Positions 6,567 to 54,225 of a stretch of DNA of 64,000 nt are shown here, in pieces. The stretch's first letter is position 1; every line of letters starts with the position of its first letter. The position numbers were made by a program, and so were the translations under genes. This stretch comes from an uncultured Actinomycetota bacterium (GTDB taxonomy: Bacteria; Actinomycetota; Aquicultoria; JACQXZ01; CAYGBL01): assembly GCA_964348135.1 (NCBI GenBank), contig CAYGBL010000010.1:5656-69655 (forward strand), given 5' to 3'. The notes under the pieces are model-generated. The model was not told the origin of the DNA and ran no database searches. It saw only the letters and a list, made by a program, of their open reading frames with translations.

Positions 6567-7868
6567 TTATTTCTTGGGGCCTCCAGTATGCTCCCTGCCA
6601 GATTTTCCTTCTAAACCAAAGAGATGTCTGAGCGACTCTACATACACATATCCATCTTTGCGGTCACTGCATTCTTTAATTCTGACAATTGGTTGATGAA
6701 GAATCTTATTAACAATACCCGATGCCAATGCTTTGATTGTCTCCTTTTGCTTCTCATTCAAGGTTCCTAATCTGGAGAGGGCTTTGCTCAGCTCTATTTC
6801 CTTGATATCATCTGCTCTCTCTTTCAAAGCTGAAATAGTTGGAACCACTTCCAAACAACTCAACCAGAAAATAAATTCGGAAACCTCCTTCTCCACTATG
6901 CTTTCTGCTTTTTTAGCCTCTCTCGCCCGTTCCGCTAAATTTGCATCTACTACCGACTGAAGATCATCAATATCATATAAAAAAGCATTATAAATATCGT
7001 TTACTCCTGGCTCAATATCCCTGGGTACAGCTATGTCAATAAAGAAAATCGGCCTATTGCGTCTACGGTAGATGGCTTTGGCAACACCTTCTTTGCTTAT
7101 TACATAATGAGGAGCTCCCGTTGAACTTATAATTATATCTGCGTTAGTCATTGCTTCAAAAAGATTGTCAAACTCCACGGCATGTCCATTAAATCGTTCG
7201 GCCAATTCTACTGCTCTTTCAAAAGTACGGTTGGTAACCAAGACTGAGCTTACTCCGTTGGCAAGAAGATGTTTTGCTGTAAGCTCGCTCATTTCTCCCG
7301 CCCCCACTATCATTACGGTTCTGCCTTCCAGTTCCCCGAAAACTTTTTTAGCAAGCTCGACGGCTGCATAACTAATGGATACTGCACTTTCTCCAATCTC
7401 TGTCTCAGTTCGCACTTTCTTCCCTACTGAAAAGGCCTGCCGAAACAGACGGTTTACGATAATGTTGGCAGCTCCCGCATCGAATGCATACTCATAAGCC
7501 TCTTTTACCTGACCCAAAATTTGAGCTTCCCCCACTACCATAGAGTCGAGACTTGCAACAACTCTGAATAGATGATGGACGGCTTCTACAGAATCGTGAA
7601 AGTAAAGATAGGGAGAGAGTTCATCAGATTTAAACCCGTGGTAATCGCAGAGAAATCGTACTGTATCTTTTTTCCCTTCTTCAAGATTATTGGCTACTAT
7701 ATAGATTTCCGTACGATTGCATGTGGAGAGAATTACGCCTTCACTAATATTTTTATATGAAAGAAGTGCATGAAGTGCTTCGTCTTGGGTTTCAGCTGGA
7801 AAAGTCAGCTTTTCTCTAATCTCCACAGGGGCTGTTTTGTGGCTTAGTCCCGCTATTACAATATGCAT
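6567..7868 (-). CDS. hemA: glutamyl-tRNA reductase
   Basis: MHIVIAGLSHKTAPVEIREK, the catalytic region LSTCNRTEIY and the NADPH site VGAGEM are present. Confidence 0.95.
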   Translation of the reverse strand: MHIVIAGLSHKTAPVEIREKLTFPAETQDEALHALLSYKNISEGVILSTCNRTEIYIVANNLEEGKKDTVRFLCDYHGFKSDELSPYLYFHDSVEAVHHLFRVVASLDSMVVGEAQILGQVKEAYEYAFDAGAANIIVNRLFRQAFSVGKKVRTETEIGESAVSISYAAVELAKKVFGELEGRTVMIVGAGEMSELTAKHLLANGVSSVLVTNRTFERAVELAERFNGHAVEFDNLFEAMTNADIIISSTGAPHYVISKEGVAKAIYRRRNRPIFFIDIAVPRDIEPGVNDIYNAFLYDIDDLQSVVDANLAERAREAKKAESIVEKEVSEFIFWLSCLEVVPTISALKERADDIKEIELSKALSRLGTLNEKQKETIKALASGIVNKILHQPIVRIKECSDRKDGYVYVESLRHLFGLEGKSGREHTGGPKK

Positions 7869-21445: not shown

Positions 21446-22315
21446 CTAATTCCCCTTCTTTGCATCCGGCACAAATAAAGGTTCACCGTGCTTGTCAATT
21501 CCAAATTCCCCTATCATCTCCTGAATCCTCGGTGAAGTCAGAAATTCTATAAAGGCTTCGGCACCCTTCGAGTTAATTTTTGGATACTTTTCTGGATTTA
21601 CTGCAATAACCGCATAGGGATTAAGGAGAAGGGAGTCCTTTTCCGCCAGAACTACTAATTCGATACGCTGGGAGGCAAGGAAAGTACCCCTATCTGCCAA
21701 TGTGTATCCTCTTTTTTCATTTGCTATCTTGACAGTCTCACCCATACCCTGTCCTGACTCAATATACCAGCTCCCACTGGGATTTATCTGAACACTCTCC
21801 CAAATCAGTTTCTCTTTTTTATGGGTTCCTGAATCATCACCTCTGGATATGAAGGTCGCTCCAGATGAGGCAATCTTTCTGAAGGCATCTCCAGCAGTAC
21901 TTCCTTTAATCTTTGCTGGATCATCTACTGGTCCAATTATAACAAAATCATTGTGCATAACCGGAATTCTCTTTACGCCAAAACCCTTTGCTACCAGTCC
22001 CTCCTCTGCCCTCTTAGAATGAACTAAAAGAATGTCTGCGTCACCACGCTCGCCCATTTTTAGCGCTTCACCCGTGCCAACAGCCACAACTTTTACCTGA
22101 GCTCCATTCTCTTTTTCAAAAATAGGTACGAGTTCATCAAGTAAACCGGTATCCTGCGTACTGGTTGTAGTCGCAAGCACCAGTCTTCCCACAGTTTCAC
22201 TCTTCTCTGCAGACTTACGTTCAGATTCTTTAGCAGCCTTCTGCTGACAACCGAAAGCAACCAACATTAGAATCGCTATTAAAACAACTACGAATTGCCT
22301 ATTGCTCACTTCCAT
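21446..22315 (-). CDS. tupA: tungstate ABC transporter substrate-binding lipoprotein (TupA-like)
   Basis: Lipobox VAFGC. The LVLATTTSTQDTGLLD (TTTS) motif is typical of the TupA family. Confidence 0.8.
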   Translation of the reverse strand: MEVSNRQFVVVLIAILMLVAFGCQQKAAKESERKSAEKSETVGRLVLATTTSTQDTGLLDELVPIFEKENGAQVKVVAVGTGEALKMGERGDADILLVHSKRAEEGLVAKGFGVKRIPVMHNDFVIIGPVDDPAKIKGSTAGDAFRKIASSGATFISRGDDSGTHKKEKLIWESVQINPSGSWYIESGQGMGETVKIANEKRGYTLADRGTFLASQRIELVVLAEKDSLLLNPYAVIAVNPEKYPKINSKGAEAFIEFLTSPRIQEMIGEFGIDKHGEPLFVPDAKKGN

Positions 22316-22393: not shown

Positions 22394-22428
22394 ATCCAAA
22401 AATATAATTCCTCTTTAGAATACACGTT

Positions 22429-22528
22429 CTCCTTTCCAAATACGGGAGGCACAATGGTTTCCCTTTGTACCCTATCGGCCATTCTCCTTACCCCGCCGAC
22501 GACGGAGTTTAGGAGACCTGGCTCGGAG
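22429..22528 (-). promoter_or_regulatory. Moco (molybdenum/tungsten cofactor) riboswitch aptamer upstream of tupA
   Basis: The minus strand reads CUCCGAGCC...GGCCGAUAGGG...GUGCCUCCCGUAUUUGGAAAGGAG. The 3' block matches the conserved GCCUCCCGUAUCUGGAAAGG of the E. coli moaA Moco motif as I recall it. A paralogous copy lies at 23501-23600. Confidence 0.8.
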
Positions 22529-22535
22529 AATCTAT

Positions 22536-22700
22536 CAGAAATCCAAATCCAAAACGAAAAAATCAAAATTACAAATCAAAATGAGAAACTTGTCACGAAA
22601 ATTCCTTGTCGTTAGCCCCAACAATTTAGTTCAAAATCCTAACACCATTTTGGATCTTCAATTGTCATTTTACATTTTGAACTTTGCAGTTTGAATTTAT
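22536..22700 (-). repeat. A/T-rich family A element flush with the stop of the MobB-like gene
   Basis: It shares gaaatccaaa and aatcaaaatga with 60018-60040. Positions 22648-22693 match 60071-60116 at 37 of 46 positions by manual alignment. Confidence 0.75.
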
Positions 22701-23432
22701 TTAAAAACAGCCAAGCTCACATTGAAAAATCTTAACCTTAAGTTCATCAGCTGCCTTGCCTACCATGTGATAAGGAACTGCCAGTTCTTCAGCTATCTTT
22801 CTTGCATTATGGCAAGATATTTTTCCTTCTCTGGACATTTCTCTTACCACCTGCTGTATTCTTTCCTCCATATCCTCCCTCCAAACATTTCTTAAATCTT
22901 CAAGCAACAATTTAAAATCCTCACCTCCTGCTTTATTAGGGTCAAAAGTTAGCATTCTTGCACCAGCGTTGATATTAAAAATTTTCGTCCTGATATCCTT
23001 ATTCTTACTATATTCAATAATTACGTTTGCCCTGGCCATAGCTTCAATCGCCGAAGGTTTAACTCTGTCCCAGCAGGAATTCATAATAAAAACGGCAAAA
23101 GCTGGCTTCAAATAGTTGAGAACACTATTTCCCTCAATAATTACATTTGATCCTGGAGGCAAGAGCGACAACGCTTTCTTCAAATCAAGTTCCAGCTGCC
23201 CTCCGTTGGTACATACCCAGAACACTGGATTTGCTCCTGCTTTCAAAAACTTTGAAGTATCGGTTCCATGCTTATCAAGAATCTCAGGGTCCGTTATTAC
23301 CCCGGTTCCGTTACCCGGGTAGTGGAGCGAATACTTTAAAGCTGCAAGACCTTTAATTCTTTTGATGATAGATACAGCCAGATTTGTCTTTCCCACATCT
23401 TTACATGCACCTGATATCGTCACAATTTTCAA
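22701..23432 (-). CDS. MobB-like P-loop protein with a C-terminal Cys-containing HTH-like domain
   Basis: P-loop ACKDVGKT near the N-terminus. The C-terminal ~55 aa reads ISCHNARKIAEELAVPYHMVGKAADELKVKIFQCELGCF. TTG start at 23432 with AAGGAG 10 nt upstream. It is preceded by its own Moco riboswitch. Confidence 0.6.
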   Translation of the reverse strand: MKIVTISGACKDVGKTNLAVSIIKRIKGLAALKYSLHYPGNGTGVITDPEILDKHGTDTSKFLKAGANPVFWVCTNGGQLELDLKKALSLLPPGSNVIIEGNSVLNYLKPAFAVFIMNSCWDRVKPSAIEAMARANVIIEYSKNKDIRTKIFNINAGARMLTFDPNKAGGEDFKLLLEDLRNVWREDMEERIQQVVREMSREGKISCHNARKIAEELAVPYHMVGKAADELKVKIFQCELGCF

Positions 23433-23483: not shown

Positions 23484-23500
23484 GTTTACACCCTGTTTTT

Positions 23501-23600
23501 CTCCTTTCCAAATGCGGGAGGCGTAGACGTTTCCCTCTACACCCTATCGGCCATTTCCCTTACCCTGCTGTCAGCGTGGCTTAGGGAAAAAGGCTCGGAG
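23501..23600 (-). promoter_or_regulatory. Moco riboswitch aptamer, second copy, upstream of the MobB-like gene
   Basis: The minus strand reads CUCCGAGCCUUUUUCCCUAAGCC...GGCCGAUAGGGUGUAGAGGGAAACGUCUACGCCUCCCGCAUUUGGAAAGGAG, colinear with 22429-22528. Confidence 0.8.
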
Positions 23601-23910
23601 ACGTATAAGATTGTAACATTAATTACAATTCGACGTTACTTTTAATTCTCCTTCTTTATATAATAAATATTTTTAGATTTGAATCATAGCCCAATTCTAT
23701 GGGTTATTGCTCTTTTCAGCAATTCCGTATTGAGTTCTATGGCATTATAACTATTTTTTATATAATTTGTAACTCAAAATCTGAGAGCCTCTAAGTTGCA
23801 TTTAAAGAAATTGTGAAGGAAAAACGGAATTAAAGTGAATTTATCCACCTTCACATAAACCAACTAATACATGTGAATTAATATGGATAAGATGGATATG
23901 AAGTGGAGCC

Positions 23911-24561: not shown

Positions 24562-24804
24562 TTAGCGGCTGATGAGCGGATGTACACCGGTTACTACCAC
24601 TTTCTTTTCCCGAAGAAGAGAAGATAAGTAGTCCCTTAAAGAGAAATCAAACTTGATTGCTATTCCACAATCAGAGCTTAGATGACGGGGAACAGGGATA
24701 AGCATTATCTTAAATCCATGTTCTCGCAGAACCTTCTCGGCTTTTAATGCATGATGGGTTGAGCCAAATAGTATCACTCCATCGCGAGCACCCAAATTCA
24801 CCAT
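24562..24804 (-). CDS. DUF3343 (putative Se/S carrier-like) small protein
   Basis: An 80-aa protein with the pattern FGSTHHALKAEKVL...IPVPRHLSSDCGIAI that I recognise as DUF3343. Confidence 0.7.
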   Translation of the reverse strand: MVNLGARDGVILFGSTHHALKAEKVLREHGFKIMLIPVPRHLSSDCGIAIKFDFSLRDYLSSLLREKKVVVTGVHPLISR

Positions 24805-25718
24805 TATGCTTCCCCACCGCGCTTACTTTCTACCCTTGTCTTTAAGAACTCTAAAAAAAGTTCAGTTAACCGGTTAAAGGGTCTACCTCGCCTGACTGTT
24901 ATATAAAGGTTGCGCTCAATTGGCATATCCTCGATCTTGACTACTCTTACTGTACCTAATTCTATCGCCTTCTCTGCTGCCCATCGGGAAATAATGGAAG
25001 CTCCTAATCCAGCTTCAACCGCCGTAATTACCGCCTCATTGCTGCCTAATTCCATTACTACACTGAAATCAATCAGCTTTATGCCTTTTTTAGATAACTC
25101 TTTTTCCACTACCATACGGGTACCTGAACCTTCTTCCCGGACGACTAATTTCTCACCAATGATTTCCTTCAAAGATACTTTGCCTTCTTGATAATGCTCA
25201 TAATTAGCAGGGACAATAAATATGAGTTCATCCTTTAAAAAGGGGCTAAATTCCAAGCGCTTGTCCTCAATAGCTGCTCCTACTACTCCAATGTCAAATT
25301 CTCCGTTTATTACTCTCTCAACAGTCTCTTCAGTGTCTGCTATCTCCAAAGAAAGTACTGCCTCCGGATATTTCTTTTTAAAAGCACCGAACATTTTTGG
25401 AAGTACATACTCACCGGGAATGGTGCTTGCTCCAATAGTTAAGCTCCCTTTTGGTGATTCTTGAAATTCTTCAATCTGGCTCTCCAGAGACTTAACCTCC
25501 GATATTATTTTTCTAGATGATTTATATACTAATTCCCCCGCCTCTGTCAGTCTTACTCTTTTGCCCGAACGGTCTATCAGTTGAACACCCAGAGATTCTT
25601 CGAGGGATTGAATCTGAAAAGTTATTGCAGGCTGTGAGATCTTAAGCCTTTTTGCACTTGCGGAGAAACTCCCTGTCTCGACAACTGTTACGAAACTATA
25701 TAACTGCGCAATCTTCAT
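24804..25718 (-). CDS. LysR family transcriptional regulator
   Basis: N-terminal wHTH (FSASAKRLKISQPAITFQIQSLEE) plus a LysR substrate-binding domain. It is divergent from the 26104 operon. Confidence 0.92.
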   Translation of the reverse strand: MKIAQLYSFVTVVETGSFSASAKRLKISQPAITFQIQSLEESLGVQLIDRSGKRVRLTEAGELVYKSSRKIISEVKSLESQIEEFQESPKGSLTIGASTIPGEYVLPKMFGAFKKKYPEAVLSLEIADTEETVERVINGEFDIGVVGAAIEDKRLEFSPFLKDELIFIVPANYEHYQEGKVSLKEIIGEKLVVREEGSGTRMVVEKELSKKGIKLIDFSVVMELGSNEAVITAVEAGLGASIISRWAAEKAIELGTVRVVKIEDMPIERNLYITVRRGRPFNRLTELFLEFLKTRVESKRGGEA

Positions 25719-26017
25719 ATAGTAACTCTTCCCTTATTTATAATAATAGAACTAACAGTGCCAACCCTTAAAACACATTTAATGGACTGAATGAGCGTAC
25801 GATATATTTTTGGCTGTAAATGTCTTCCCTCAATATACTGACTGATTGATAATACTCATAATAACACTAAAACTTTAGAAATAGAATTGAACTTTGTTAT
25901 CAATTGTTTTTATACATCAAAGAGTCATTAAGCTGCAAATTTGTCTTACATCAGCTCATGTCACCACGGATAGTAATTTCCATATAATGCCATCTACAAA
26001 TTTTTCGCACAGCCCCC

Positions 26018-26046
26018 TTGCCTAAACGTGAAAATTCCTGTATATT
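26018..26046 (+). promoter_or_regulatory. candidate sigma70-type promoter for the 26104 operon
   Basis: TTGCCT, a 17-nt spacer, then TATATT, about 55 nt upstream of the ATG. Confidence 0.4.
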
Positions 26047-26103
26047 AATTATTACATTTTTACATAATAAGTATTAATATTGTTTATGTTTAAGGAGGGA
26101 ACT

Positions 26104-26781
26104 ATGCGGTTAAAACTTAAATATTTGGGAGTCTTATTTTTAATGGTTCTTCTGCTTATTGCGCTTGGCTGTCAGCAGAAACAAGCGAAACAAGAACCAA
26201 AACCTGAAACGGAGACAGAAGAAGAGCTTGCTCAACCCACCAGAAAAAACCCGTTAGTCGTTGATACCGACAACAATGAAGTCCTTATCTATACTGAAGT
26301 AAACGGCAAATATTTCTCAGAGTGGACAAGACACGGGGTAGTTTCTAAGGACGGCTCAAATGGTGATAAATCTGTCTTAAGAGCTTGGGCAAATGCTTTA
26401 AAGCTACATGATGCCTTGATTTCTATAGAAGCAAAGCCAGGCGACAATGTCAAACTTGATTCACCAATAGGAACTATTGTAGAAGGCGATACCCTGGAGG
26501 TTAAGGTCAGCTGGGACGGTAAAACCTATGATTTTGAAGACATCATCAAGTCTGAACCAGATAGAGGAATGGAAGTACGGTTTGGAGGCAACTACCAGAC
26601 CCAGAGCGAGAAAAAAACCGGCTGCCTGCTCTGTTTGGATAGCTGTGCCGCTGGAATTACCAGTAATGCAAAATGGGAATGGGGTGCCACACACACAGAG
26701 AATAAAGTAAAATTCTATGGACGTGAAGATATCTTGCCACCTGATGGCAGCCCAGTTATAGTGAGCTTCTCACTAAAATAA
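26104..26781 (+). CDS. secreted lipoprotein, YdjY-like, with a CLLCLDSC motif
   Basis: Signal peptide with lipobox IALGC. AAGGAGG lies upstream of ATG 26104. It is followed by a TVP38/DedA gene, as in the E. coli ydjXYZ arrangement (from memory). Confidence 0.6.
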   Translation: MRLKLKYLGVLFLMVLLLIALGCQQKQAKQEPKPETETEEELAQPTRKNPLVVDTDNNEVLIYTEVNGKYFSEWTRHGVVSKDGSNGDKSVLRAWANALKLHDALISIEAKPGDNVKLDSPIGTIVEGDTLEVKVSWDGKTYDFEDIIKSEPDRGMEVRFGGNYQTQSEKKTGCLLCLDSCAAGITSNAKWEWGATHTENKVKFYGREDILPPDGSPVIVSFSLK

Positions 26782-26804
26782 TACTGGAGGATTAATAATT
26801 ACTA

Positions 26805-27512
26805 ATGCCTGATAAAGATAAGAAAAAATTTTTGATAGGAGGAGCACTGCTCCTCTCTATCCTTCTATATTTATTTGTGCCGGGTTTCCAGACGTTTATA
26901 AAGCAAGCTTTCGGGCTGCTTAGCCGCGGAGATGTAAAAGCCCTAAAAACCTACCTTCTTTCATTTGGCTTGTGGGCTCCCATTATCTCAGGTGCATTGA
27001 TGGTTTTACAATCTATCATTGCCCCTCTGCCGGCATTCGTAATCACCTTCACTAACGGGTTGCTCTTTGGAGTATGGTGGGGAACCCTGCTTTCCTGGAG
27101 CAGCGCCATGGTAGGAGCAGCTATCTGTTTCTTTATTGCGCAAACATTCGGCCGGCCCGCAACGGAAAAACTTGTGAGCAGAAGAAGTCTGGAAATAGCA
27201 GATGGATTCTTTGCCCGTTACGGTAAACATGCAGTTCTAATTGCCCGGCTTATTCCAATAATTTCCTTCGATGTGGTAAGCTATGGAGCGGGTTTAACTT
27301 CTATTGGCTTTTGGCCCTTCTGGCTCGCTACCGGTATTGGGCAACTTCCAGCAACCATCGTATATTCCTATCTGGGCCAGAGTCTTACCGGAACGGTAAA
27401 AATACTGTTTTGGGTTTTCGTTGTCGTCATTACTCTTTTGGTTTTAAGCTCCGCATTGAAGTTAAACCTTAATCGAGGGAAAACAGATGAAAGGAAACAA
27501 GTCTTTTCTTAA
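26805..27512 (+). CDS. TVP38/TMEM64 (DedA superfamily, VTT domain) membrane protein
   Basis: Membrane protein with the PLPAFVITFTNGLLFG and RLIPIISFDVVSYGAGLT motifs. Confidence 0.85.
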   Translation: MPDKDKKKFLIGGALLLSILLYLFVPGFQTFIKQAFGLLSRGDVKALKTYLLSFGLWAPIISGALMVLQSIIAPLPAFVITFTNGLLFGVWWGTLLSWSSAMVGAAICFFIAQTFGRPATEKLVSRRSLEIADGFFARYGKHAVLIARLIPIISFDVVSYGAGLTSIGFWPFWLATGIGQLPATIVYSYLGQSLTGTVKILFWVFVVVITLLVLSSALKLNLNRGKTDERKQVFS

Positions 27513-28419
27513 GTTTGCAAAAATAATAATTTCTATTCTTCTTATCTCTATCATCCTATACCAAACAGATTTCTCAGAGGGCCGGGACCTAATTTTGCAA
27601 GCCAGGATTTTCTATGTAGGTATGGCATTCGTCATTGCAGTTTTCGCCATCTTCCTGAGTGCGTATAAATGGCAATTGGTACTCGTATCTCAAGGTTTGG
27701 TTGTTCCTTTCTTCAAACTTGTCTCCTTTTACTTCGTAGGCTTGTTTTTCAACAATTTTCTTCCCACTAGCATAGGTGGAGACGTTGTACGAGCGTACGA
27801 TCTATCAAGAACTATTAAGAGCTCCTCTTACTCCATCGCCTCTATACTCGCAGAAAGAATTCTCGCAAGTGTTGCCCTCGGTTTCACAGCAGCTTTTGCA
27901 TTATTGCTGGGATATCAGCTAGCGAAACCATATTTCTCATGGATAATTATGTTCTTGGCACTTTCACTGCTTATATTTATCTTTGTTGCTTATCTTCATC
28001 GTTGGGAGAGATCTATAAACAGGATGAGATGGAAAAGCCTAAGAACATATCTTTTAGAAATTAGCAATGGCATGAGATTGCCACTCAAAAATAAATCTAC
28101 TCTTTTCTGGATTCTGTTTCTATCTTTTTTATTTCAGACCTCAGTGGTATTGATTAATCTTGTCATATTCCACGCTTTCAATCTTAAGGTCTCAGCAGTC
28201 TATTGCTTCATTTTTATCCCTATCATTTCAGCTCTCTCAATGCTTCCCGTATCCGTTAACGGTTTGGGATTAAGGGAGGGAGCTTACATCTATTTCTTTG
28301 GCAGACTTGGTTTGTCCGCAACGCAAGCAGTAAGTGCCTCACTTGCTTTCTTCTTCATAGTTACCCTAACAAGCCTACTAGGAGGTGCCATTCTTTTAGT
28401 AAGGAGAGCTAATCAATGA
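27487..28419 (+). CDS. flippase-like domain (UPF0104 / LPG-synthase TM type) membrane protein
   Basis: Polytopic protein with NNFLPTSIGGDVVRAYDL, characteristic of this family. Confidence 0.8.
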   Translation: MKGNKSFLKFAKIIISILLISIILYQTDFSEGRDLILQARIFYVGMAFVIAVFAIFLSAYKWQLVLVSQGLVVPFFKLVSFYFVGLFFNNFLPTSIGGDVVRAYDLSRTIKSSSYSIASILAERILASVALGFTAAFALLLGYQLAKPYFSWIIMFLALSLLIFIFVAYLHRWERSINRMRWKSLRTYLLEISNGMRLPLKNKSTLFWILFLSFLFQTSVVLINLVIFHAFNLKVSAVYCFIFIPIISALSMLPVSVNGLGLREGAYIYFFGRLGLSATQAVSASLAFFFIVTLTSLLGGAILLVRRANQ

Positions 28420-28853
28420 GAAAAATATTGGATTCCAAAGAGGCCGGCCAAAAGACTATCCACTACTTTTCCAGAGGTTATAATTGTGCCCAATCCATAC
28501 TAAGAGCGTGCAGCGAAACAAAAGGAATTATTCTTGAAAAGAGTGTGCTTAAAGCTGCCAGCACTCTAGCAGGAGGAATAGGCTATTGCGGCTGTGTCTG
28601 TGGCGCACTACTAGGAAGCCTGCTCTTTATTGGAGTTCTATACGGAGATGGAAAAACTCCGGGAAGGAACAAAAAAGCTCTTACATATGCAAGGGAGTTC
28701 TACCAGCGCTTTGAAGAAAGATTCTCCGCATCTTGCTGCGTTATTCTACGTGAAGGTATTTCTTTCGGAGATAAAAGGCTGCATAACCACTGTTCAGCTA
28801 TCTCAGCTCAAACAGCAGAAATGCTTATTGATTTTATTAATGAAACGGGATAG
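28416..28853 (+). CDS. C_GCAxxG_C_C family protein
   Basis: GYNCAQSILRA and GYCGCVCGALLGS motifs. The start overlaps the upstream stop (ATGA). Confidence 0.85.
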   Translation: MRKILDSKEAGQKTIHYFSRGYNCAQSILRACSETKGIILEKSVLKAASTLAGGIGYCGCVCGALLGSLLFIGVLYGDGKTPGRNKKALTYAREFYQRFEERFSASCCVILREGISFGDKRLHNHCSAISAQTAEMLIDFINETG

Positions 28854-28859
28854 AAATCA

Positions 28860-29312
28860 ATGAAGAACCTGCAAGCTTCAATGCTTCAAGCCAATTTCAT
28901 TTTCGCACACATCTTCTGGGGCAGTTTGATCGGCTTCGAGATAGCCTGGGCATCCATGAAAATAAATTGGATTGACATGCGGTTTAATACAGGGCTGTTT
29001 TTCCTTTTGGGAATGGCCGTTGGGCTTGTTCTTGCTTTGTCTAAAGGCAAGCTCAAATCGCGATTATCAGTACATCCATTTATTATATTCGTTCCTGTCT
29101 TCGTTCTATCTGGTTACGTTTTAGTTAGCATGGCTGGAAATCCTCACGCTGCTATAATCGTTGGGCCTATTTTGATAAGAGAAGGGCTGAACCTCAGGGA
29201 GATTCAGTTGGACTTTATACAAAAAATTGTATTATGGTATCTTGTTTTTGGCTTTTTAAGCTCAATTGCATTTCTTTACGGAAAGAGCTCTAACTCCACT
29301 TATGAAAAGTGA
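28860..29312 (+). CDS. small integral membrane protein, function unknown
   Basis: A 150-aa ORF with about 4 hydrophobic segments, in operon register. Confidence 0.6.
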   Translation: MKNLQASMLQANFIFAHIFWGSLIGFEIAWASMKINWIDMRFNTGLFFLLGMAVGLVLALSKGKLKSRLSVHPFIIFVPVFVLSGYVLVSMAGNPHAAIIVGPILIREGLNLREIQLDFIQKIVLWYLVFGFLSSIAFLYGKSSNSTYEK

Positions 29313-29479
29313 GCCCGCCCTTTAAAGCGTGAAATTTGACATATTATATACAGTTAGCCTAATTTCATTTTTCATAAGCAGTTATTTAATCTTTGCCGCT
29401 TAGATATCTGTACAATATATTATTAATATTTTAAGTGTCTTTGTCTGATACAAAATAGTAACATTAATTCAAAATCGAA

Positions 29480-30151
29480 ATGATATCCATAATAATTCCG
29501 ACTTTCAACGAAGAGAAAATACTTCCGGCTACTCTTGAACATCTTAGCAGCTTTGAGGATTGCGAGGTAATCGTAGCTGATGGAGATAGCAGCGATGGCA
29601 CAGCGAGTATTGCAAAAAAATTTGCTATTCTAGCTTCATCATCTCCAGGAAGAGGAAAACAACTGAACAAAGGTGCGAGTCTTGCCAGGGGTGAAATCCT
29701 GCTCTTTTTGCACGCTGATACTTTTCTTCCCGCAAAGGCACTAACAGCAATTAAAGAATACCTTAAGAGCCCTAAAGTAATAGGTGGAAGATTTCTCATT
29801 CAAATCGATAGCAATCGTATAATATACCGCATAATTGAAACTGGCATAAATATGCGTGACTGGATAACCAAAGGATTTACAGGTGATCAAGCTATGTTTA
29901 TAAAAAGGCATGCCTTTGAGATGTTGGGAGGATTTAAAGAATTTCCTTTTATGGAAGATCTGGATATGGCTCAAAGGATGCGTAAACTGGGTAAAATAGT
30001 CAGAATCCCTTTAGCGGTACGGACTTCAGTACGTCGCTGGGAAAATAACGGCGTACTTAAGACTATCCTGCTTATGTGGATAATTAGGGTGCTGTATTTA
30101 CTTGGTGTCTCTCCTTATACCCTTAAGAGGTTATATAATGACACAAGATAG
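29480..30151 (+). CDS. family 2 glycosyltransferase resembling the TIGR04283 (arsenosugar / rSAM-selenodomain-associated) type
   Basis: IIIPTFNEE...VIVADGDSSDGT...GRGKQLNKGA...LLFLHADTFLP...GDQAMFIKR..FMEDLDMAQRMRK...RTSVRRWE. The family assignment is from memory of the model. Confidence 0.7.
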   Translation: MISIIIPTFNEEKILPATLEHLSSFEDCEVIVADGDSSDGTASIAKKFAILASSSPGRGKQLNKGASLARGEILLFLHADTFLPAKALTAIKEYLKSPKVIGGRFLIQIDSNRIIYRIIETGINMRDWITKGFTGDQAMFIKRHAFEMLGGFKEFPFMEDLDMAQRMRKLGKIVRIPLAVRTSVRRWENNGVLKTILLMWIIRVLYLLGVSPYTLKRLYNDTR

Positions 30152-32255
30152 TTTAAAGAAAGAAATTAAGAAAATCTACGGAAGTGCGTTAGAGGCAGAA
30201 CGTGATCTCTGTTCCACGGAACAGGAAAAACTCCCCGATGATAGTTGTTGTATGTGTGATCCAGGACAATACAGCATGGTCCTCGACCGTTTGCCCGCTT
30301 CTTGCCGGAATTTTTCCTTAGGTTGTGGGAATCCGCTATCCTATCACAATCTGCAATCTGACGATATTGTGGTAGACATTGGATCAGGAGCAGGGTTAGA
30401 TGTAATGCTTGCAGCGCTTAAAGTTCCTCGAGGCAAGGCTGTAGGCATAGATTTTACTATGGAGGTGGTTAAAAGGGGCCGCGAAAACGCAGCCCTGGCA
30501 AATATTCTTAACGCCGAGTTCCTGCTTGCGGAAATAGAAAATCTTCCCTTATTTGACGACTTCGCATCTCTGGTTATTAGTAATTGCGTAGTTAATCTTC
30601 TTCCTGATAAAGAAAGAGCTTTTCAGGAGATTGCAAGAATTCTCAAGCCAGGAGGTTTCTTGCTTATTTCGGATATCGTGAGCAAAGAACCTATCCCCGA
30701 AAAACTCCGCAATGATCCCAAACTTTGGTCTTCTTGCATATCAGGAGCCATACCTGAATATGAATACCTTTCCTTAATTAGAAAATCTGGGATAGGAGGA
30801 TTGGCAATTTTCGAAAGAACTCATATAGACGTATCGGGGCTTAAGCTCTTTAGTATAACTGTTAAGGGTCTTAAACATCAGCATAACTCTGCTCTCAAGC
30901 TTAAAAATCTCAAATATTTTGATACCGCCAGCGTATTCCTAATTCCCGAAGAACCATTCTGGTTTAAAACATCGGCAAGAGCAGCCAACCTGTTAAGAAT
31001 GAGTTCCCCTGCAGAAGGGGAATCTGTATATAAAAGTTTAAATGACCAGGATTTTGAAGCCGAGCTGCAAGTCAGAGAAATAGCTGCAAATGACTCATCC
31101 AAATCCACTTATTATTCGGGCAGGGGTAAATTTATAAAACCAGAAACACTTTCCGAGCTCTGGTTACACATCACTCAACAATGCAACTTGCAGTGCATTC
31201 ATTGTTTAATATCCTCGACCCTGAAAAAAGAGGATATCTTAAGTGTTAAGGAACTGGTTAACTTGATTGAAGAAGCGCAAGCTTTAGGAGTTAAACGTTT
31301 CTATCTAACTGGTGGTGAACCTTTCCTTAGGAAAGACATCATCGATATAATCGAGCTAATAACACAAAAAACCAACTTGGTAATCCTTACAAATGGAACA
31401 CTCATTAAACCTTACCTTTCCCGTCTTTCGCAAAACCAGCGGTTGCTGCTGCAAGTTAGCCTGGAAAGCCATCTCCCTGAAATCCATGAAACCATAAGGG
31501 GAAAAGGTAGTTTCGAACCAGCCCTTGAAGGTATTAAGAGTCTTGTTTCCTACGGCCTTAATCCTGTCATTGCAACCACTCTGACCAGAATAAATGCTCC
31601 CTATATGGCCAAGACAGCACATTATCTTTCCCAGCTGGGAGTGAAGCATCTTCACATTCTCTTTCTTCATCCTAGAGGAAGAGCAGCGCTTACTAACAAA
31701 CTTACAATCTCCGCAATTGAGGCAAGCAAGACAATGAGGAATCTGAAAGAGGTTGCCTCCAAATTGAACATCAGTATTGACAATTTTAAGGCTTTACAAG
31801 CACGCTTAACGGGAAAAAGAGCGTTAAAATACGATCTTTGCATTGCCGGATATGAAATCCTGGCTATAGGAAATAACGGCCAGATATACCCCTGCCCTGC
31901 CTTAGTGGGAAGTGAAGAATTTTCATGCGGTTCTCTAAGAAATAAAAGCTTAAGAGACATCTGGCTCAATAGTGCCGCAACCAAAAGAATAAGAGCAGAA
32001 AGTTTGTCTAAAAATGATAAATGCCGAACTTGCGATATGAGGTTTTTTTGCGGTGCCGGCTGTATTTCTTTTAAATATTTCTCAACCGGAAGACTCGACG
32101 GGCTTGACCCTTACTGCAAAGTCTATTATTCAATGTTACAAACAGAGCTTAAGGATCTCTCCTCCACCTTGGAATGTAATTCTTCTAATTTCCAGACTTC
32201 AATGCGCACATCATTTGATCAAAAGAACACGGTCAAAGGTTTCCACTGTGCCTGA
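30138..32255 (+). CDS. fusion protein: ArsM-like SAM-dependent methyltransferase + radical SAM / SPASM domain
   Basis: N-terminal half: IKKIYGSAL, CC pair, GCGNPLSY, VVDIGSGAGLDV, ISNCVVNLLPDK, LKPGGFLLISDIV, SSCISGA, which follow the ArsM pattern. C-terminal half: ITQQCNLQCIHC (Cx3Cx2C), and SPASM motifs YPCPALVGSEEFSCGSL and KCRTCDMRFFCGAGC. ATG 30138 follows AAGAGG and overlaps the GT2 end. Confidence 0.8.
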   Translation: MTQDSLKKEIKKIYGSALEAERDLCSTEQEKLPDDSCCMCDPGQYSMVLDRLPASCRNFSLGCGNPLSYHNLQSDDIVVDIGSGAGLDVMLAALKVPRGKAVGIDFTMEVVKRGRENAALANILNAEFLLAEIENLPLFDDFASLVISNCVVNLLPDKERAFQEIARILKPGGFLLISDIVSKEPIPEKLRNDPKLWSSCISGAIPEYEYLSLIRKSGIGGLAIFERTHIDVSGLKLFSITVKGLKHQHNSALKLKNLKYFDTASVFLIPEEPFWFKTSARAANLLRMSSPAEGESVYKSLNDQDFEAELQVREIAANDSSKSTYYSGRGKFIKPETLSELWLHITQQCNLQCIHCLISSTLKKEDILSVKELVNLIEEAQALGVKRFYLTGGEPFLRKDIIDIIELITQKTNLVILTNGTLIKPYLSRLSQNQRLLLQVSLESHLPEIHETIRGKGSFEPALEGIKSLVSYGLNPVIATTLTRINAPYMAKTAHYLSQLGVKHLHILFLHPRGRAALTNKLTISAIEASKTMRNLKEVASKLNISIDNFKALQARLTGKRALKYDLCIAGYEILAIGNNGQIYPCPALVGSEEFSCGSLRNKSLRDIWLNSAATKRIRAESLSKNDKCRTCDMRFFCGAGCISFKYFSTGRLDGLDPYCKVYYSMLQTELKDLSSTLECNSSNFQTSMRTSFDQKNTVKGFHCA

Positions 32256-32455: not shown

Positions 32456-32947
32456 TTAAATATCCAAGCTGTTAGCCCTTGCTACTGATACATCCAGTTT
32501 AAAAGAAGCGGGTGTCCCGTTGGGTTTTGTTAACTTCAAGCCCTTTGATTCAAATGTAAAATCAACGCTTTGATGGCCTGCTTCAACAGGTGTCACGTTT
32601 AAAGTAATGTTCAAAGATCTACCCGGGGGCAATCCCTTAAAAGCCCAAACTCCTTCATCCTCACCTTTGTCCAAAGGTTTGGGTTTTATAGAATTAACAA
32701 TCCAATTCTTTAGCTTTTTACTGCGAAGCGTTATCCCAGGAATATTTTGTTTGTCCTGATTAGTTATAGAAATACGTATCTCCGAGGAAGTTGCAATTTC
32801 CTGCACTTCCGGAGTATCTGCCCATACTGCTACGCTAATTTCTTCTTTGCCTGTAGGAACTGTATATCCACATCCGAAGAGAACTAGTGCTACCAGAATA
32901 ATAGTCAAAGTAATATTAATAAATTTTATATTTGAAATCTCTCTCAC
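32456..32947 (-). CDS. lipoprotein, beta-sandwich-like, function unknown
   Basis: Signal peptide with lipobox LFGC. There are no recognisable catalytic motifs. Confidence 0.6.
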   Translation of the reverse strand: MREISNIKFINITLTIILVALVLFGCGYTVPTGKEEISVAVWADTPEVQEIATSSEIRISITNQDKQNIPGITLRSKKLKNWIVNSIKPKPLDKGEDEGVWAFKGLPPGRSLNITLNVTPVEAGHQSVDFTFESKGLKLTKPNGTPASFKLDVSVARANSLDI

Positions 32948-37367: not shown

Positions 37368-38672
37368 ATGACTCTAATAGAGAAATTAAACCTTGGCGAA
37401 ATTCCAAAAAAGATAAGAAAAGTAGCAGCATACGAAAAGATAGAGCCTTATATGCTGAGTGAAAAGGTGCTTAAAGGAAGAGCTATTCTCCCTTGCAATC
37501 GCAAACACAAAGAAATAAGAGCTGTGGCTATAGGAGAAGGTCTGCGTACCAAAGTGAACGCCAACATAGGTACCTCAGAAGATTACCCCTACCTGGAAGA
37601 TGAGCTTAAAAAGTTAAGAGTCGCTATAGAAGCAGGAGCTGATACAGTTATGGATCTAAGTACAGGTGGAAATCTCGATCAGATAAGACATGAAATCATC
37701 GCTAATTCATCCATTCCTGTAGGAACAGTGCCAATATATCAAGCTGCCCTGGAAGCTAAAGAAAAATACGGAAGTATCGTGGAGATGAGTACTGATCTTA
37801 TCTTCGAAGTTATCGAAAAGCAAGCCGAAGACGGAGTCGATTTTATGACAGTTCACTGCGGGGTAACTCAGAGAGCTCTCCAGTCGCTTCAAGAACAGGG
37901 TAGGATTACTGAGATTGTGAGTAGGGGGGGTGCCTTTATTGCTGCCTGGATGCTCCGACATCAAAGAGAAAATCCCCTCTATGAAGATTTTGACCATTTA
38001 CTTAAAATTGCTAAGAAGTTCGACGTGACTCTCAGTCTGGGTGATGGCATGCGGCCTGGTTGTCTGGCTGATGCAAGCGACCGTGCCCAATTTGCCGAAC
38101 TTCTTACCTTGGGTGAATTAGTAGGAGAGGCACGAAAGACTAGAGTCCAAGTTATAGTAGAAGGTCCCGGACATCTTCCTTTCGATCAAATAGTAGCCAA
38201 CGTCCAAATGGAAAAGGAGATCTGTGAAGGAGCACCCTTTTACCTCCTCGGGCCTCTGGTAACTGATGTTGCACCCGGGTATGACCACATTACTTCAGCA
38301 ATTGGAGGCACGATGGCTGCATATGCTGGAGCGGATTTCCTCTGCTATGTAACGCCGCGTGAACATCTCGGTCTTCCCACCATAGAGGATACAAAAGAGG
38401 GGGTTATTGTGTGCCGGATTGCGGCCCACGCTGCAGACATCGCAAAGGGTGTAAAGGGCGCAGATGAATGGGACTTGAAAATGGCTAAGGCACGTAAAGC
38501 ACTTGATTGGAGCAGTCAAATAGCGCTTTCTATAAACCCGGAAAAGGCCAACAATGCCCATCAAGAAAGAAAAGGTAACGAGCAGGAAACCTGTACTATG
38601 TGTGGGGAATTCTGTGCTATGAAATTGGTATCCCAATTCCTCGGTTCAAAATATCAGGAAAAGTGTCTCTAG
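37368..38672 (+). CDS. thiC: phosphomethylpyrimidine synthase (short form)
   Basis: The ThiC core is present: GTVPIYQA, MTVHCGV, IVSRGG, EGPGH, and the C-terminal CTMCGEFCAM cluster motif. Confidence 0.95.
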   Translation: MTLIEKLNLGEIPKKIRKVAAYEKIEPYMLSEKVLKGRAILPCNRKHKEIRAVAIGEGLRTKVNANIGTSEDYPYLEDELKKLRVAIEAGADTVMDLSTGGNLDQIRHEIIANSSIPVGTVPIYQAALEAKEKYGSIVEMSTDLIFEVIEKQAEDGVDFMTVHCGVTQRALQSLQEQGRITEIVSRGGAFIAAWMLRHQRENPLYEDFDHLLKIAKKFDVTLSLGDGMRPGCLADASDRAQFAELLTLGELVGEARKTRVQVIVEGPGHLPFDQIVANVQMEKEICEGAPFYLLGPLVTDVAPGYDHITSAIGGTMAAYAGADFLCYVTPREHLGLPTIEDTKEGVIVCRIAAHAADIAKGVKGADEWDLKMAKARKALDWSSQIALSINPEKANNAHQERKGNEQETCTMCGEFCAMKLVSQFLGSKYQEKCL

Positions 38673-42691: not shown

Positions 42692-42788
42692 TGGCGGGAG
42701 TGTGTGGGAATCGAACCCACCTAGAACGCTTCTAACGCTCTACCGTGGTTTTGAAGACCAGGCAGCCCACCAGGACTACTCCACTCCC
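42692..42788 (-). tRNA. selC: tRNA-Sec (anticodon UCA), CCA encoded
   Basis: The minus strand reads GGGAGUGG...CUUCAAA anticodon loop...long variable arm UAGAGCGUUAGAAGCGUUCUA...T-arm GUGGGUUCGAUUCCCAC...ACACUCCCGCCA. It lies directly downstream of selB. Confidence 0.88.
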
Positions 42789-42797
42789 ATATCAGCT

Positions 42798-46667: not shown

Positions 46668-47246
46668 TCAAACAGCTATTACTTTATCTGCCTGTATAAA
46701 TGAGTCAACAATGTCATACATATTAGATATATTACCTACACTAACCTTTTCTTTCAATTGAAAAAAATCAAGGCAGGTGCCACAAATCAGAATCTCCGTT
46801 CCTGCTGATTCTATCTTCTGCAGATTTTCCAAAACCGGTGATCCTTCAATGGTAAGCTTTACTCCACTATTCATAAATATAATCTTTTTGGGTTTTATAT
46901 CCTTCTCTGTCAAGGTATAGATCAAACTCTTTATCAAAACTCTTCCTAATTCTTCATCTCCTCGTCCTACAGTCTCGGAACTAATAAAAATAACACTTGG
47001 TTCTACAGATGCTTTGTTCTCTACGTTTTTTTCTACTGACTTGTTAAGCTTTAAAACAAAATCTTTTCCATCTTTTGCGATATCCACAGAAAACCCAAAT
47101 TTTTCTCCTAATCTGCCTACGTTTTCCTTAGCCGCATCGCTATCTACCAGAACCTTCAACGTTTTCTCTCCAGACTCAATTGCTTTCCTGGTTAAAATAA
47201 CTGGCTGCGGACAATCCAGCCCTCTCGCATCGATTGATTTTGCCAT
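46668..47246 (-). CDS. yedF: selenium metabolism protein YedF (TusA-like + DsrE-like domains)
   Basis: N-terminal IDARGLDCPQPVI (CPxP) and a C-terminal DsrE-like half with ICGTCLD. Confidence 0.85.
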   Translation of the reverse strand: MAKSIDARGLDCPQPVILTRKAIESGEKTLKVLVDSDAAKENVGRLGEKFGFSVDIAKDGKDFVLKLNKSVEKNVENKASVEPSVIFISSETVGRGDEELGRVLIKSLIYTLTEKDIKPKKIIFMNSGVKLTIEGSPVLENLQKIESAGTEILICGTCLDFFQLKEKVSVGNISNMYDIVDSFIQADKVIAV

Positions 47247-48296
47247 CTATTCCTCCCTCTCAATAACCCTTATCGTTCCCGGTTTTTCCTTAAGCACCCT
47301 CCCTATGACTGCTCTTGTATCGACACCCCTTTGAGAAAGCGCATCTAATAAGGATTTCTTCCGTTCAGGCGATACACTCATAAGCAAGCCTCCGGAAGTT
47401 TGGGGATCAAAAAGGATATCAAGCCAGACTTTCTCCAAAGCACTGTCAGCAATAATCTGATCTTTCAGAGCATCACGATTACTTTTTGCCCCACCCGGTA
47501 CTACTCCCATCTCAGCATGCTCCTGTGCCTTTGGCCATATGGGTATATTATTTACCCATACTTCAGCTGAAGTCCCACTCGCTTCCATCATCTCAAAAAG
47601 ATGACCTAAAAGACCAAATCCAGTAATATCTGTCCCTGCATTAACACCAACTGCAACCATTGCCTCTGACGCCCTCTTATTAAGCTGAGTGACGCTCTTA
47701 AGCTCACCCCTAATATCATCTTCCGATATCAATCCGCCTTTCAGAGCTGTCGCCAATATTCCAATGCCCAATGGCTTGGTTAAAACTAAATAATCACCCT
47801 TCTTAGCGCCGTTGACTCTCACAATACTCTTCTCTTCAACTACACCAACCACAGACATCCCAAATTTGGGCACTTCATCTTCTACTGAATGCCCACCTAC
47901 AATCAATACCCCAGCTTCTTCCGCTTTTTCCCGTGCACCCCGTAAAATCTCAGCTAAGATAGAAAGATCAAGCCTGCAAGGAAAACAGACTATATTAAGA
48001 GCAGTCAACGGTTTTCCTCCCATAGCGTAAACGTCACTGAAAGAATTGGCAGCAGAAATCTGACCATAAAGGTAAGGATCATCCACAACAGGAGTGAAGA
48101 AATCCAAAGTCTGAACCAATAAAATGTTTTCCGTCAGACGGTAGATGGAGGCATCATCAGCTGTCTCTATCCCCACTAACAGTTCTTCTGCCGTTTGTAC
48201 CGGAAAGTTCTGCAATATGCTTCTTAGGTCTGCCAGACCTATTTTAGATGCTCAGCCGCTCTTTTTTGAAAGCCTTGTAAGTTTAATTTCTTCCAG
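47247..48296 (-). CDS. selD: selenide, water dikinase; selenoprotein form (in-frame UGA at 48254-48252), probable CUG start
   Basis: The track ORF begins at an internal TTG (48215). Upstream, the same frame reads (L)EEIKLTRLSKKSG-U-ASKIGLADLRSIL, which aligns with E. coli [31 protein letters not shown] lies 6 nt before CTG 48296, and a TAG closes the frame 7 codons further upstream. Confidence 0.85.
48225..48241 (-). promoter_or_regulatory. candidate bacterial SECIS hairpin for the selD UGA
   Basis: UAGGUCU GGC AGACCUA begins 11 nt after the UGA. Confidence 0.55.
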
Positions 48297-48583
48297 CTTA
48301 TACCTCCCTCTAAGTTCCTATGGACATTTATGTTTCATAGTGGTGCCGATGAATACGCAGAAAATATAAATAAACATTATACTATTTATAACATATTTGC
48401 ATTTAAAACAGAATGCTGCTTGGAGATTGTTACCGGCTATTTTAAGCTATACGGTTCGTTATCTTAAGACCTTCTCAATATATAGTGGGCAGTAACAATC
48501 TACTATTTAGTTTAGACAACAGTAAAATGCGAGCCCAGTTAGCCCGCATTTCTCTAAAACACCAATATTACACTCAGTTTGTG

Positions 48584-53409: not shown

Positions 53410-54225
53410 TTATTCTAGCTTTGCACCAGCCAAAGCATTACTACATATACAGTCTCGTTCCACCGGTATCTTAGGAATCATTTCAAAAAGAAGCTTCCTT
53501 ACCTTATCATTGTTTTGCTGTAGAATCTTTATAATATCTCCCGCAGACACAGGTTTAATATCAGGTTCGCCTTCAAGACCAACGTCATAATCTGTTATAA
53601 GAGCAATACTTACGTAGCAAATCTCCAGCTCACGTGCTAAGTATGCTTCAGGATACTGTGTCATATTAATAACTTCCCAGCCCTGAGATTGATACCATTT
53701 GCTTTCAGCTCTTGTACTGAAACGAGGCCCTTGAATAACTACTACAGTACCCTTTTTGTGCACTGTAATTCCTAGTTCCTCAGCTGTATTGATTGCAATT
53801 TCCGCTAGCTCAGGACAGTAAGGATCAGCCGCACTTACATGTGTTGCAACTGGGCCGTCATAGAAGGTATCCTGTCTTCCCCATGTTCTATCTATAAATT
53901 GATCGCAAATAACAAATTCACCTGGTTTAATATGAGTCTGCAGACTACCACAAGCGCAAGGAGCAATAATTCTAGTAACCCCGAGCTGCTTCATTGCATC
54001 AAGATTTGCACGATAGTTTATCATATGAGGAGGATATTGGTGCTTTGCTCCATGTCTTGGAAGAAAAGCAACCTTGTATTCCCCGATTTCTCCAATATGA
54101 ACCTTGTCGCTTGCTCTCCCGTAAGGAGTAACTATGTCGTGCTCCTCTACATTTTCCAAAAAACTGTAGAATCCCGAGCCCCCGAATACACCAATTTCAG
54201 CACTCGCTTTCTTCCTTTCAATCAT
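53410..54225 (-). CDS. mtnP: S-methyl-5'-thioadenosine phosphorylase
   Basis: IGVFGGSGFY...FLPRHG..H...PH.INYRAN pattern. Confidence 0.9.
   Translation of the reverse strand: MIERKKASAEIGVFGGSGFYSFLENVEEHDIVTPYGRASDKVHIGEIGEYKVAFLPRHGAKHQYPPHMINYRANLDAMKQLGVTRIIAPCACGSLQTHIKPGEFVICDQFIDRTWGRQDTFYDGPVATHVSAADPYCPELAEIAINTAEELGITVHKKGTVVVIQGPRFSTRAESKWYQSQGWEVINMTQYPEAYLARELEICYVSIALITDYDVGLEGEPDIKPVSAGDIIKILQQNNDKVRKLLFEMIPKIPVERDCICSNALAGAKLE

Follow-up and report, generated by a model that had tools for sequence, protein, structure and literature searches.

An ArsM-type methyltransferase fused to a radical SAM/SPASM enzyme in an uncultured Actinomycetota bacterium: a candidate non-orthologous replacement of the ArsM and ArsS pair

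In a 64,000-nucleotide stretch of contig CAYGBL010000010.1 from an uncultured Actinomycetota bacterium (hereafter, the window), an operon divergent from a LysR-family regulator gene ends in an open reading frame (ORF; 30138-32255) for an intact 705-aa protein, in which an ArsM-type methyltransferase, a linker resembling a decayed RRE (the recognition element of RiPPs, peptides made by the ribosome and modified after translation) and a radical S-adenosylmethionine (SAM) domain with a SPASM region are joined in one chain. We propose that this fusion is a non-orthologous, fused replacement of ArsM and ArsS, and that it contributes to an arsenosugar-type product handled at the membrane, a reading to which we assign a probability of roughly one half. 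The kind of system would be a known one, namely organoarsenical biosynthesis by ArsM plus a radical SAM enzyme, while its fused, SPASM-type form appears to be new. The initial annotation of the window had suggested a non-canonical organoarsenic route at this place, and the suggestion gained strength when largely the same gene cassette was found to end in ArsS in two other genomes, and when TIGR04282, VTT and TIGR04283 proteins proved to be the commonest neighbors of such fusions.

The N-terminal half of the fusion is an ArsM-type domain, as had been read from its motifs, and lies closer to ArsM than to methyltransferases at large. Beside a Methyltransf_31 match at residues 74-202 (94 bits), the arsenite methyltransferase model NF008823 was the top NCBIfam match of the whole protein (211.9 bits, residues 2-237), and among sequences of the PDB the ArsM/AS3MT proteins matched with E-values of 1e-23 to 1e-18 vs approximately 1e-8 for generic class I methyltransferases. 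The motifs GCGNP, SNCVVNL and CISGA place C63, C150 and C200 on C72, C174 and C224 of CmArsM, and the C37/C38 pair falls in the region of CmArsM C44. Structural superposition by Foldseek laid the domain on CrArsM, CmArsM and human AS3MT with a root-mean-square deviation of 2.6-3.5 Å over approximately 230 residues. Over the 181 distinct fusions in which residue conservation was counted, the three As(III)-binding cysteines are invariant (180-181/181), and the CC pair is kept in 142. The domain does not carry the C-terminal part of stand-alone ArsM, and the fusion scores under the cut-offs of the ArsM models (211.9 vs 263 for NF008823, 98 vs 400 for the AsSugarArsM model NF038099, and 130.5 vs 500 for NF040538). 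Methylation of As(III) by this domain is predicted.

The C-terminal half is a complete radical SAM enzyme with a full SPASM region, in agreement with the first reading of the sequence. PF04055 covers residues 345-480 (87 bits), with CNLQCIHC as the CX3CX2C motif (C349, C353 and C356) that is invariant in 180 of the 181 fusions, and PF13186 covers residues 568-633 (42.5 bits, cut-off 21.5). The eight SPASM cysteines (C568, C586, C629, C632, C638, C642, C660 and C704) are conserved in the small clade to which the protein belongs. That this partner differs from ArsS was also borne out, as the 25 best-scoring families for the domain are all of the SPASM or MoaA type and do not include the ArsS model TIGR04167 (cut-off 300); the best of them are the SPASM maturases WgkB, MftC, NirJ2 and AhbD, each far under its cut-off. 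An AlphaFold 2 model built from 69 sequences was confident for the protein as a single unit (mean per-residue confidence, pLDDT, 89; predicted template modeling score, pTM, 0.87), and with Foldseek it aligned over 460-471 columns to the RRE-containing sactisynthase CteB, the radical SAM and SPASM portion accounting for only approximately 370 residues, and also matched anSME, SuiB, SkfB and PqqE.

The initial annotation had further suggested that the linker be modeled to look for an RRE-like fold. In the model, residues 246-335 form three strands and two helices, which is in keeping with that idea, but the fold is degenerate and the PqqD hidden Markov model (HMM; cut-off 23.4) found nothing in it, while the homologous segment of relatives in which the radical SAM domain comes first does pass (P0017, 33 bits; P0031, 25 bits; P0002 is borderline at 22.4). 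The linker is therefore probably a decayed RRE.

The fusion could also be a RiPP or protein maturase: a peptide or a cassette protein (for instance YdjY or the C_GCAxxG_C_C protein) would be recruited by the RRE, then cross-linked or oxidized by the SPASM radical SAM domain and tailored by the methyltransferase domain. The PqqD/RRE matches in P0017 and P0031, the best structural matches (CteB, SuiB, SkfB, anSME and PqqE) and the invariant cysteine motifs of the YdjY and C_GCAxxG_C_C proteins all fit such a role. However, no conserved small ORF was found near 76 fusion loci, other than frame shadows of neighboring genes, nor in the gaps of the window; the RRE of the window's protein is invisible to the HMM and has one helix missing; the invariant ArsM cysteine triad would be needless in a peptide methyltransferase; and no protease or ABC exporter is tied to the family, its recurrent partners being GT2 (family 2 glycosyltransferase), TIGR04282 and VTT proteins. 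Given the lack of a precursor-like small ORF and the decay of the RRE, we regard this explanation as very improbable. The likeness to the RRE-dependent maturases CteB, SuiB, PqqE, MftC and anSME thus extends to the fold, to the order of RRE-like, radical SAM and SPASM parts and to two auxiliary-cluster sites, and differs in the family models, which score under their cut-offs, in the precursor peptide, of which none was found around the fusion loci, in the decayed RRE and in the fused ArsM domain.

The initial annotation had not recognized the fusion as a described system. This stands insofar as the fusion passes no curated model and the literature searched gave no paper in which ArsM is linked to a SPASM enzyme or a radical SAM fusion, but the protein is not unique: it is a member of a large unnamed family in which the same radical SAM lineage is joined to ArsM in both orders. 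At E ≤ 1e-20, a protein search with the fusion gave at least 300 relatives; of the 120 listed, nearly all have methyltransferase and radical SAM domains, and the source databases name them only generically. Seven full-length homologs with 38-47% identity share the architecture. An assembly or frameshift artifact was rejected because the architecture recurs in full-length homologs across many genomes. When one genome of each GTDB species was scanned with a profile, more than 575 stretches matched; among the best 80, 76 contain a fusion ORF, and the hosts include Nitrospirota, Scalindua and other Brocadiales, Acidobacteriota, Thermoanaerobaculia, Elusimicrobia, Chloroflexia, Desulfobacterota, Omnitrophota and archaea. 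A scan of GTDB genomes with the single protein gave no close relative, only partial matches to the methyltransferase or the radical SAM domain.

The radical SAM domain comes first in 173 sequences and the methyltransferase in 14, the latter being the window's small clade (680-735 aa), for which a metagenome scan yielded only relatives of at most 36% identity among the matches listed. The two orders may have arisen either by permutation or by independent fusion: the radical SAM domains are as close between orders (up to 41% identity) as within the methyltransferase-first clade (39-46%), and the methyltransferase domains are less so (30-39% vs 42-55%). An extra DUF5714 domain at the C-terminus marks one subfamily with the radical SAM domain first (P0072-P0118, approximately 1010-1090 aa), whose hosts include Desulfoluna species.

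The proposed tie of the fusion to arsenosugar synthesis draws on the genes that surround it. As had been claimed, the GT2 encoded just upstream belongs to the arsenosugar-associated family TIGR04283, whose cut-off it passes clearly (Table 1). Around this enzyme, we ran a second scan, with a narrow GT2 alignment for the pattern search, and compared 80 GT2-anchored with approximately 84 fusion-anchored loci; the GT2 family was found in cyanobacteria, Nitrospira, Methylomirabilota and others. The GT2 closest to that of the window (55% identity) lies in a metagenome-assembled genome of the Actinomycetota (L093), where genes for YdjY (59% identity), VTT (63%), C_GCAxxG_C_C (36%) and the unnamed membrane protein (41%) are followed by the GT2 and then by ArsS (TIGR04167, 367 bits, cut-off 300). 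In a second such genome, of Ca. Aquicultor (L108), LPG_synthase_TM, C_GCAxxG_C_C and GT2 genes likewise lead to ArsS (406 bits against the same cut-off). Since largely the same cassette ends in ArsS in these two genomes, the fusion occupies the ArsS position in a shared cassette. The two enzymes were not met together, ArsS being present in seven of the 80 GT2-anchored loci and in none of the approximately 84 fusion-anchored ones. A stand-alone RRE, radical SAM and SPASM protein of the fusion's lineage also lies in such surroundings in another locus (L096), between VTT and a GT2-TIGR04282 pair. We read the exchange as a non-orthologous displacement of ArsS in which the ArsM activity was brought into the same polypeptide. 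Directly downstream of the ArsS gene of L108 (positions 6871-7659 of that locus) stands a gene for an MTAP-like phosphorylase (166 bits, under the MTAP cut-off), a candidate for removal of adenine that fits the processing of an adenosylated arsenical; in the window itself, the sole MTAP gene (53410-54225) lies 21 kb off and encodes a genuine housekeeping enzyme.

Within the methyltransferase-first clade, five independent contexts could be compared (the window, L009/L010, L011, L012 and L333). The order VTT, LPG_synthase_TM, C_GCAxxG_C_C, GT2 and fusion is kept in all five, YdjY is present in four, with a rhodanese in its stead in L009, and TIGR04282 is also present in four, the window being the exception. 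The VTT protein is 61-64% identical in the cassette relatives, YdjY orthologs occur in L011, L012, L333 and L093, and the 150-aa membrane protein is 35-41% identical to cassette genes in L011, L012 (both by tblastn) and L093. Across the wider family, de novo clustering of the ORFs around the fusions, counted over the 76 loci with a fusion ORF, gave TIGR04282/DUF2064 (21 loci), VTT (20), TIGR04283 GT2 (19), a PiT-family transporter (17), DUF547 (14), an unnamed membrane protein (13), a periplasmic redoxin (12), and a MerA-like flavoprotein and DUF3179 (nine each) as neighbors; by tblastn, TIGR04282 was detected in 28 of the approximately 84 fusion-anchored and 33 of the 80 GT2-anchored loci. 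A better fit of the N-terminal half to generic methyltransferases, a mismatch of the GT2 and an artifactual fusion had been named as outcomes that would speak against the proposal; all three were looked for, and the evidence favored ArsM, TIGR04283 and a genuine gene.

Several observations nevertheless weigh against an arsenosugar-type role. Arsenic resistance (ars) genes are not recurrent near the 76 fusions, no TIGR04282/DUF2064 gene is present anywhere in the 64 kb of the window, and the LysR regulator beside the operon is of a selenium-associated type (NF040786). The arsenosugar role of TIGR04282 and TIGR04283 is itself a presumed one, drawn from names given by comparative genomics, and all the chemistry of the fusion is predicted. 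In addition, the ArsS of L108 aligns with the fusion over 138 aa of the radical SAM core only (24% identity), the nearest relatives of its radical SAM domain are peptide maturases, and the full set of SPASM cysteines is found in only 45-46 of the 181 fusions, the window's clade among them, so that subfamilies may differ in chemistry. The slot for the radical SAM enzyme is also filled in other ways. In Moorella thermoacetica, a cultured acetogen (L335; CP136551.1, 8001-13647), YdjY, LPG_synthase_TM, C_GCAxxG_C_C, GT2 (226 bits), TIGR04282 (173 bits) and VTT genes accompany a 337-aa radical SAM protein with the motif CPQNCVFC, which is related neither to ArsS nor to the fusion and has a single weak BioB-like match, while in Nitrospira (L099, L106, L111, L116 and others) the TIGR04283 GT2 and TIGR04282 occur with a KamA-family radical SAM enzyme, a dCTP-deaminase-like protein and an SDR protein. 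The cassette may thus serve as a general platform that is not specific to arsenic. In Desulfosporosinus hippei (L336; FNCP01000021.1, 602-9413), VTT, LPG_synthase_TM, YdjY, a small protein and C_GCAxxG_C_C are encoded with neither a GT2 nor a radical SAM gene. Taken with the Moorella and Nitrospira variants, this means that the membrane module is separable and the radical SAM slot plastic, which lowers our confidence that the fusion performs the exact reaction of ArsS.

An alternative is that the same architecture carries out other radical chemistry: with a methylated arsenical kept on the ArsM domain, the SPASM radical SAM domain would, for example, couple arsenic to another carbon radical or modify a sugar or lipid intermediate, giving a new class of organoarsenical. 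The radical SAM domain is unrelated to ArsS, the window's clade keeps both auxiliary-cluster sites, the nearest structural relatives perform hydrogen abstraction and cross-linking rather than adenosylation, and the cassette takes several unrelated types of radical SAM enzyme. Yet replacement of ArsS in position, within a largely identical cassette, most simply means the same step, and about half of the fusion family has lost the auxiliary-cluster cysteines of SPASM and is still tied to GT2, TIGR04282 and VTT. We consider this alternative unlikely.

The regulator raises the question of whether the substrate is arsenic at all. Selenium or tellurium had been named from the start as alternative substrates, and antimony may be added; the ArsM-like domain would then methylate a chalcogen or metalloid bound to thiols, with a seleno-sugar or a similar compound made under the selenium-associated LysR. 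The part of this suggestion that stands is the adjacency: the genes for the NF040786-type LysR and for DUF3343/Se_S_carrier lie directly upstream of the operon. Also in its favor are the rhodanese that stands in for YdjY in L009 and the rhodanese-YdjY fusions known in that family, the recurrent MerA-like flavoprotein, redoxin and CcdA neighbors, and the selenoproteins that, by their NCBIfam names, the ArsS, C_GCAxxG_C_C and some ArsM-like families include. The part that did not stand is the selenium block nearby. This block (42.7-48.3 kb) is the standard selenocysteine (Sec) machinery, with tRNA-Sec (42692-42790), SelB, SelA, YedF and a Sec-containing SelD, and it was rejected as a part of the system, being generic, more than 10 kb from the operon and separated from it by unrelated genes (a histidine kinase, thiamine genes and an ADP-ribosylglycohydrolase). 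Moreover, the three As(III)-binding cysteines of ArsM/AS3MT are invariant in the fusions, and LysR/DUF3343 accompanies the cassette in no relative examined. The case for selenium thus comes from an adjacency specific to the window, and we hold selenium, tellurium or antimony to be a quite unlikely substrate.

If the arsenosugar-type reading is followed through, the plus-strand genes at 26104-32255 would act as one operon that makes an organoarsenical and handles it at the membrane; the sequences show the identity of the domains, the conserved residues, the synteny and the exchange of ArsS for the fusion, and from these we infer the substrate, each chemical step and the direction of transport. 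The ArsM domain would bind As(III) on C63, C150 and C200, aided by C37/C38, and methylate it with SAM, after which the thiolate-bound As(III) species would be passed to the fused radical SAM/SPASM domain, where a second SAM would be cleaved and a C-As bond formed. In the simplest case, by analogy with ArsS, this would be 5'-deoxyadenosylation of dimethylarsenite. The ArsM domain would double as the arsenic-binding substrate domain, the role of the Cys-rich C-terminal regions in ArsS and ArsL, and the RRE remnant would serve as an interdomain adaptor, not as a binder of leader peptides. A phosphorylase, the CofC-like nucleotidyltransferase TIGR04282 (which joins in most relatives) and the inverting GT2 could then convert the nucleoside into a glycoside, the TIGR04283 enzyme moving the arsenic-bearing sugar to a membrane acceptor. 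VTT/DedA and LPG_synthase_TM may flip the product, or the lipid that carries it, to the YdjY lipoprotein on the other side of the membrane, and the C_GCAxxG_C_C protein may have a thiol redox or chaperone function. From the membrane genes we infer that the product is membrane- or lipid-linked, and the D. hippei module, which adjoins genes for a CDP-alcohol phosphatidyltransferase, a rhodanese and an ABC importer, supports a lipid-linked intermediate through the first of these.

Two described systems come close to this scheme. In Synechocystis sp. PCC 6803, ArsS adenosylates DMAs(III) (dimethylarsenite), and arsS is co-transcribed with arsM (PMC13598754; bioRxiv 10.1101/2022.09.23.509062). Like that pair, the fusion brings together a radical SAM enzyme and a SAM methyltransferase of the As(III) type and is tied to a TIGR04283 GT2 and, in relatives, to TIGR04282. 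Unlike it, both activities reside in one polypeptide, the radical SAM domain is of the SPASM/RRE maturase lineage, with neither the DUF3641 Cys-rich domain nor a TIGR04167 match, and an uncultured anaerobe takes the place of the cyanobacterial host. The arsinothricin pathway of Burkholderia gladioli (arsQML) likewise combines a C-As-forming radical SAM enzyme, ArsL, with an ArsM-type methyltransferase, and there As(III) is bound to cysteine thiolates for the radical step (PMC13598754). However, ArsL is a non-canonical radical SAM enzyme that uses a 3-amino-3-carboxypropyl radical and has a C-terminal RCCLKC motif, with no SPASM region, no fusion, and no GT2 or membrane cassette.

The membrane module has a presumed counterpart of its own. 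In the ydjXYZ-ynjABCD-ynjE-ynjF locus of E. coli, a YdjY lipoprotein is paired with VTT/DedA proteins, and the D. hippei module presumably resembles this region; both differ from the window's cassette in having neither a GT2 nor a radical SAM enzyme.

The layout of the locus is given in Table 1. Our ORF map agrees with the initial annotation for the coordinates of every ORF, and the family matches are those it had named for the LysR-divergent operon. On the minus strand lie the LysR and DUF3343 genes, followed by a 385-bp AT-rich gap and seven plus-strand genes.

Table 1. Features of the LysR-divergent operon and of the domains of its fusion gene (positions in the window).
Feature	Position	Strand	Evidence
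DUF3343 / Se_S_carrier small protein	24562..24804	-	PF11823, 81 bits; same direction as the LysR gene
LysR-family regulator	24804..25718	-	NF040786 "selenium metabolism-associated LysR", 321 bits, cut-off 250; divergent from the operon
AT-rich divergent intergenic region, presumed promoter/operator	25719..26103	.	Hexamers, palindromes, ribosome binding site
YdjY-domain lipoprotein	26104..26781	+	NF040466, 134 bits; lipobox Cys23; invariant C174-x2-C177-x3-C181
VTT/DedA (TVP38) membrane protein	26805..27512	+	PF09335, 95 bits
LPG_synthase_TM flippase-like membrane protein	27487..28419	+	PF03706, 148 bits; TIGR00374, 96 bits
C_GCAxxG_C_C Cys-rich putative redox protein	28416..28853	+	PF09719, 81 bits; TIGR01909, 76 bits
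Unnamed conserved membrane protein, 150 aa	28860..29312	+	No family match; orthologs in relatives
GT2 glycosyltransferase, TIGR04283 family	29480..30151	+	249.8 bits, cut-off 182, whole model length covered
Fusion, ArsM-type methyltransferase domain	30138..30872	+	Residues 1-245; C37/C38, C63, C150, C200
Fusion, degenerate RRE/PqqD-like linker	30873..31142	+	Residues 246-335
Fusion, radical SAM core, full SPASM and stop codon	31143..32255	+	CX3CX2C at 31182-31205; SPASM from C568, approximately 31839

The genes of the operon are tightly packed, with overlaps of 4 to 26 nt or short gaps, apart from one gap of 167 nt upstream of the GT2 gene, whose stop overlaps the ATG of the fusion by 14 nt, as had been noted; an AAGAGG ribosome binding site precedes that ATG. 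Ahead of the first ATG (26104) stands AAGGAGG, and the intergenic region holds promoter-like hexamers at 26018-26046(+) and imperfect palindromes at 26042-26089 and 25876-25914, all of them consensus matches only, beyond which scans of the region for promoters, terminators and palindromes gave nothing informative. A scan with Rfam gave no element for the operon or for its leader. LysR is a putative regulator of the divergent operon, a pairing that relatives do not share. In the YdjY domain, the motifs TRHG and CX2CX3C are invariant (compared in the window, P0138, P0139, P0156 and P0192), and its AlphaFold 2 model (pLDDT 90) had no fold match in the PDB; the 150-aa membrane protein (28860-29312) has no match among Pfam and NCBIfam families.

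Other features of the window were observed in passing. A 163-aa lipoprotein-like ORF on the minus strand (32456-32947), with no Pfam or NCBIfam family match, converges on the operon. Upstream of LysR, genes for molybdenum and tungsten cofactors (MoaA, MoaC, MoeA, MOSC and MobA) fill 15.3-24.5 kb, with two Moco/Tuco riboswitches on the minus strand (22413-22540 and 23485-23612, 78 and 85 bits) that precede a tungstate-type ABC transporter (21446-22315 and downstream genes) and a 243-aa ORF (22701-23432), the latter unannotated and with a P-loop-like N-terminus. In the Sec block, the gene for YedF lies at 46668-47246 and that for SelD at 47247-48300 (minus strand), where an in-frame TGA at 48252-48254 within the motif SKKSG-U-ASKIG makes SelD probably a selenoprotein, for which the mechanical ORF call is too short. 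Among GTDB representatives, the best match of ThiC (37368-38672) is 63% identical, with matches spread over metagenome-assembled genomes of Bacillota, Actinomycetota and Dehalococcoidia, so that this genome collection lacks a near relative of the host lineage at the species level.

Among the arsenic species of food webs, arsenosugars and arsenolipids are major ones, and to our knowledge only the first committed enzyme of arsenosugar synthesis, ArsS, is known, mainly from cyanobacteria. If the proposal is true, the fusion would be a second, non-homologous radical SAM solution, joined to ArsM and widespread in anammox bacteria, Nitrospirota, Acidobacteriota, Desulfobacterota and archaea, and the synthesis of complex organoarsenicals would extend to anoxic sediments, soils and groundwater. 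Radical SAM enzymology would gain a naturally channeled enzyme that uses two SAM molecules. For TIGR04282, TIGR04283, YdjY, VTT/DedA and C_GCAxxG_C_C proteins, this association gives a first functional handle, and Moorella thermoacetica is a cultured organism with the cassette. More broadly, and only tentatively, we envisage the ArsM and radical SAM fusions as an undescribed, phylum-spanning family of anoxic settings that forms C-As bonds independently of ArsS and ArsL, within a previously unseen pathway for lipid-linked organo-metalloids, the ydjXYZ-related cassette possibly acting as a general platform on which the products of several unrelated radical SAM enzymes are attached to a membrane lipid and then exposed or exported.

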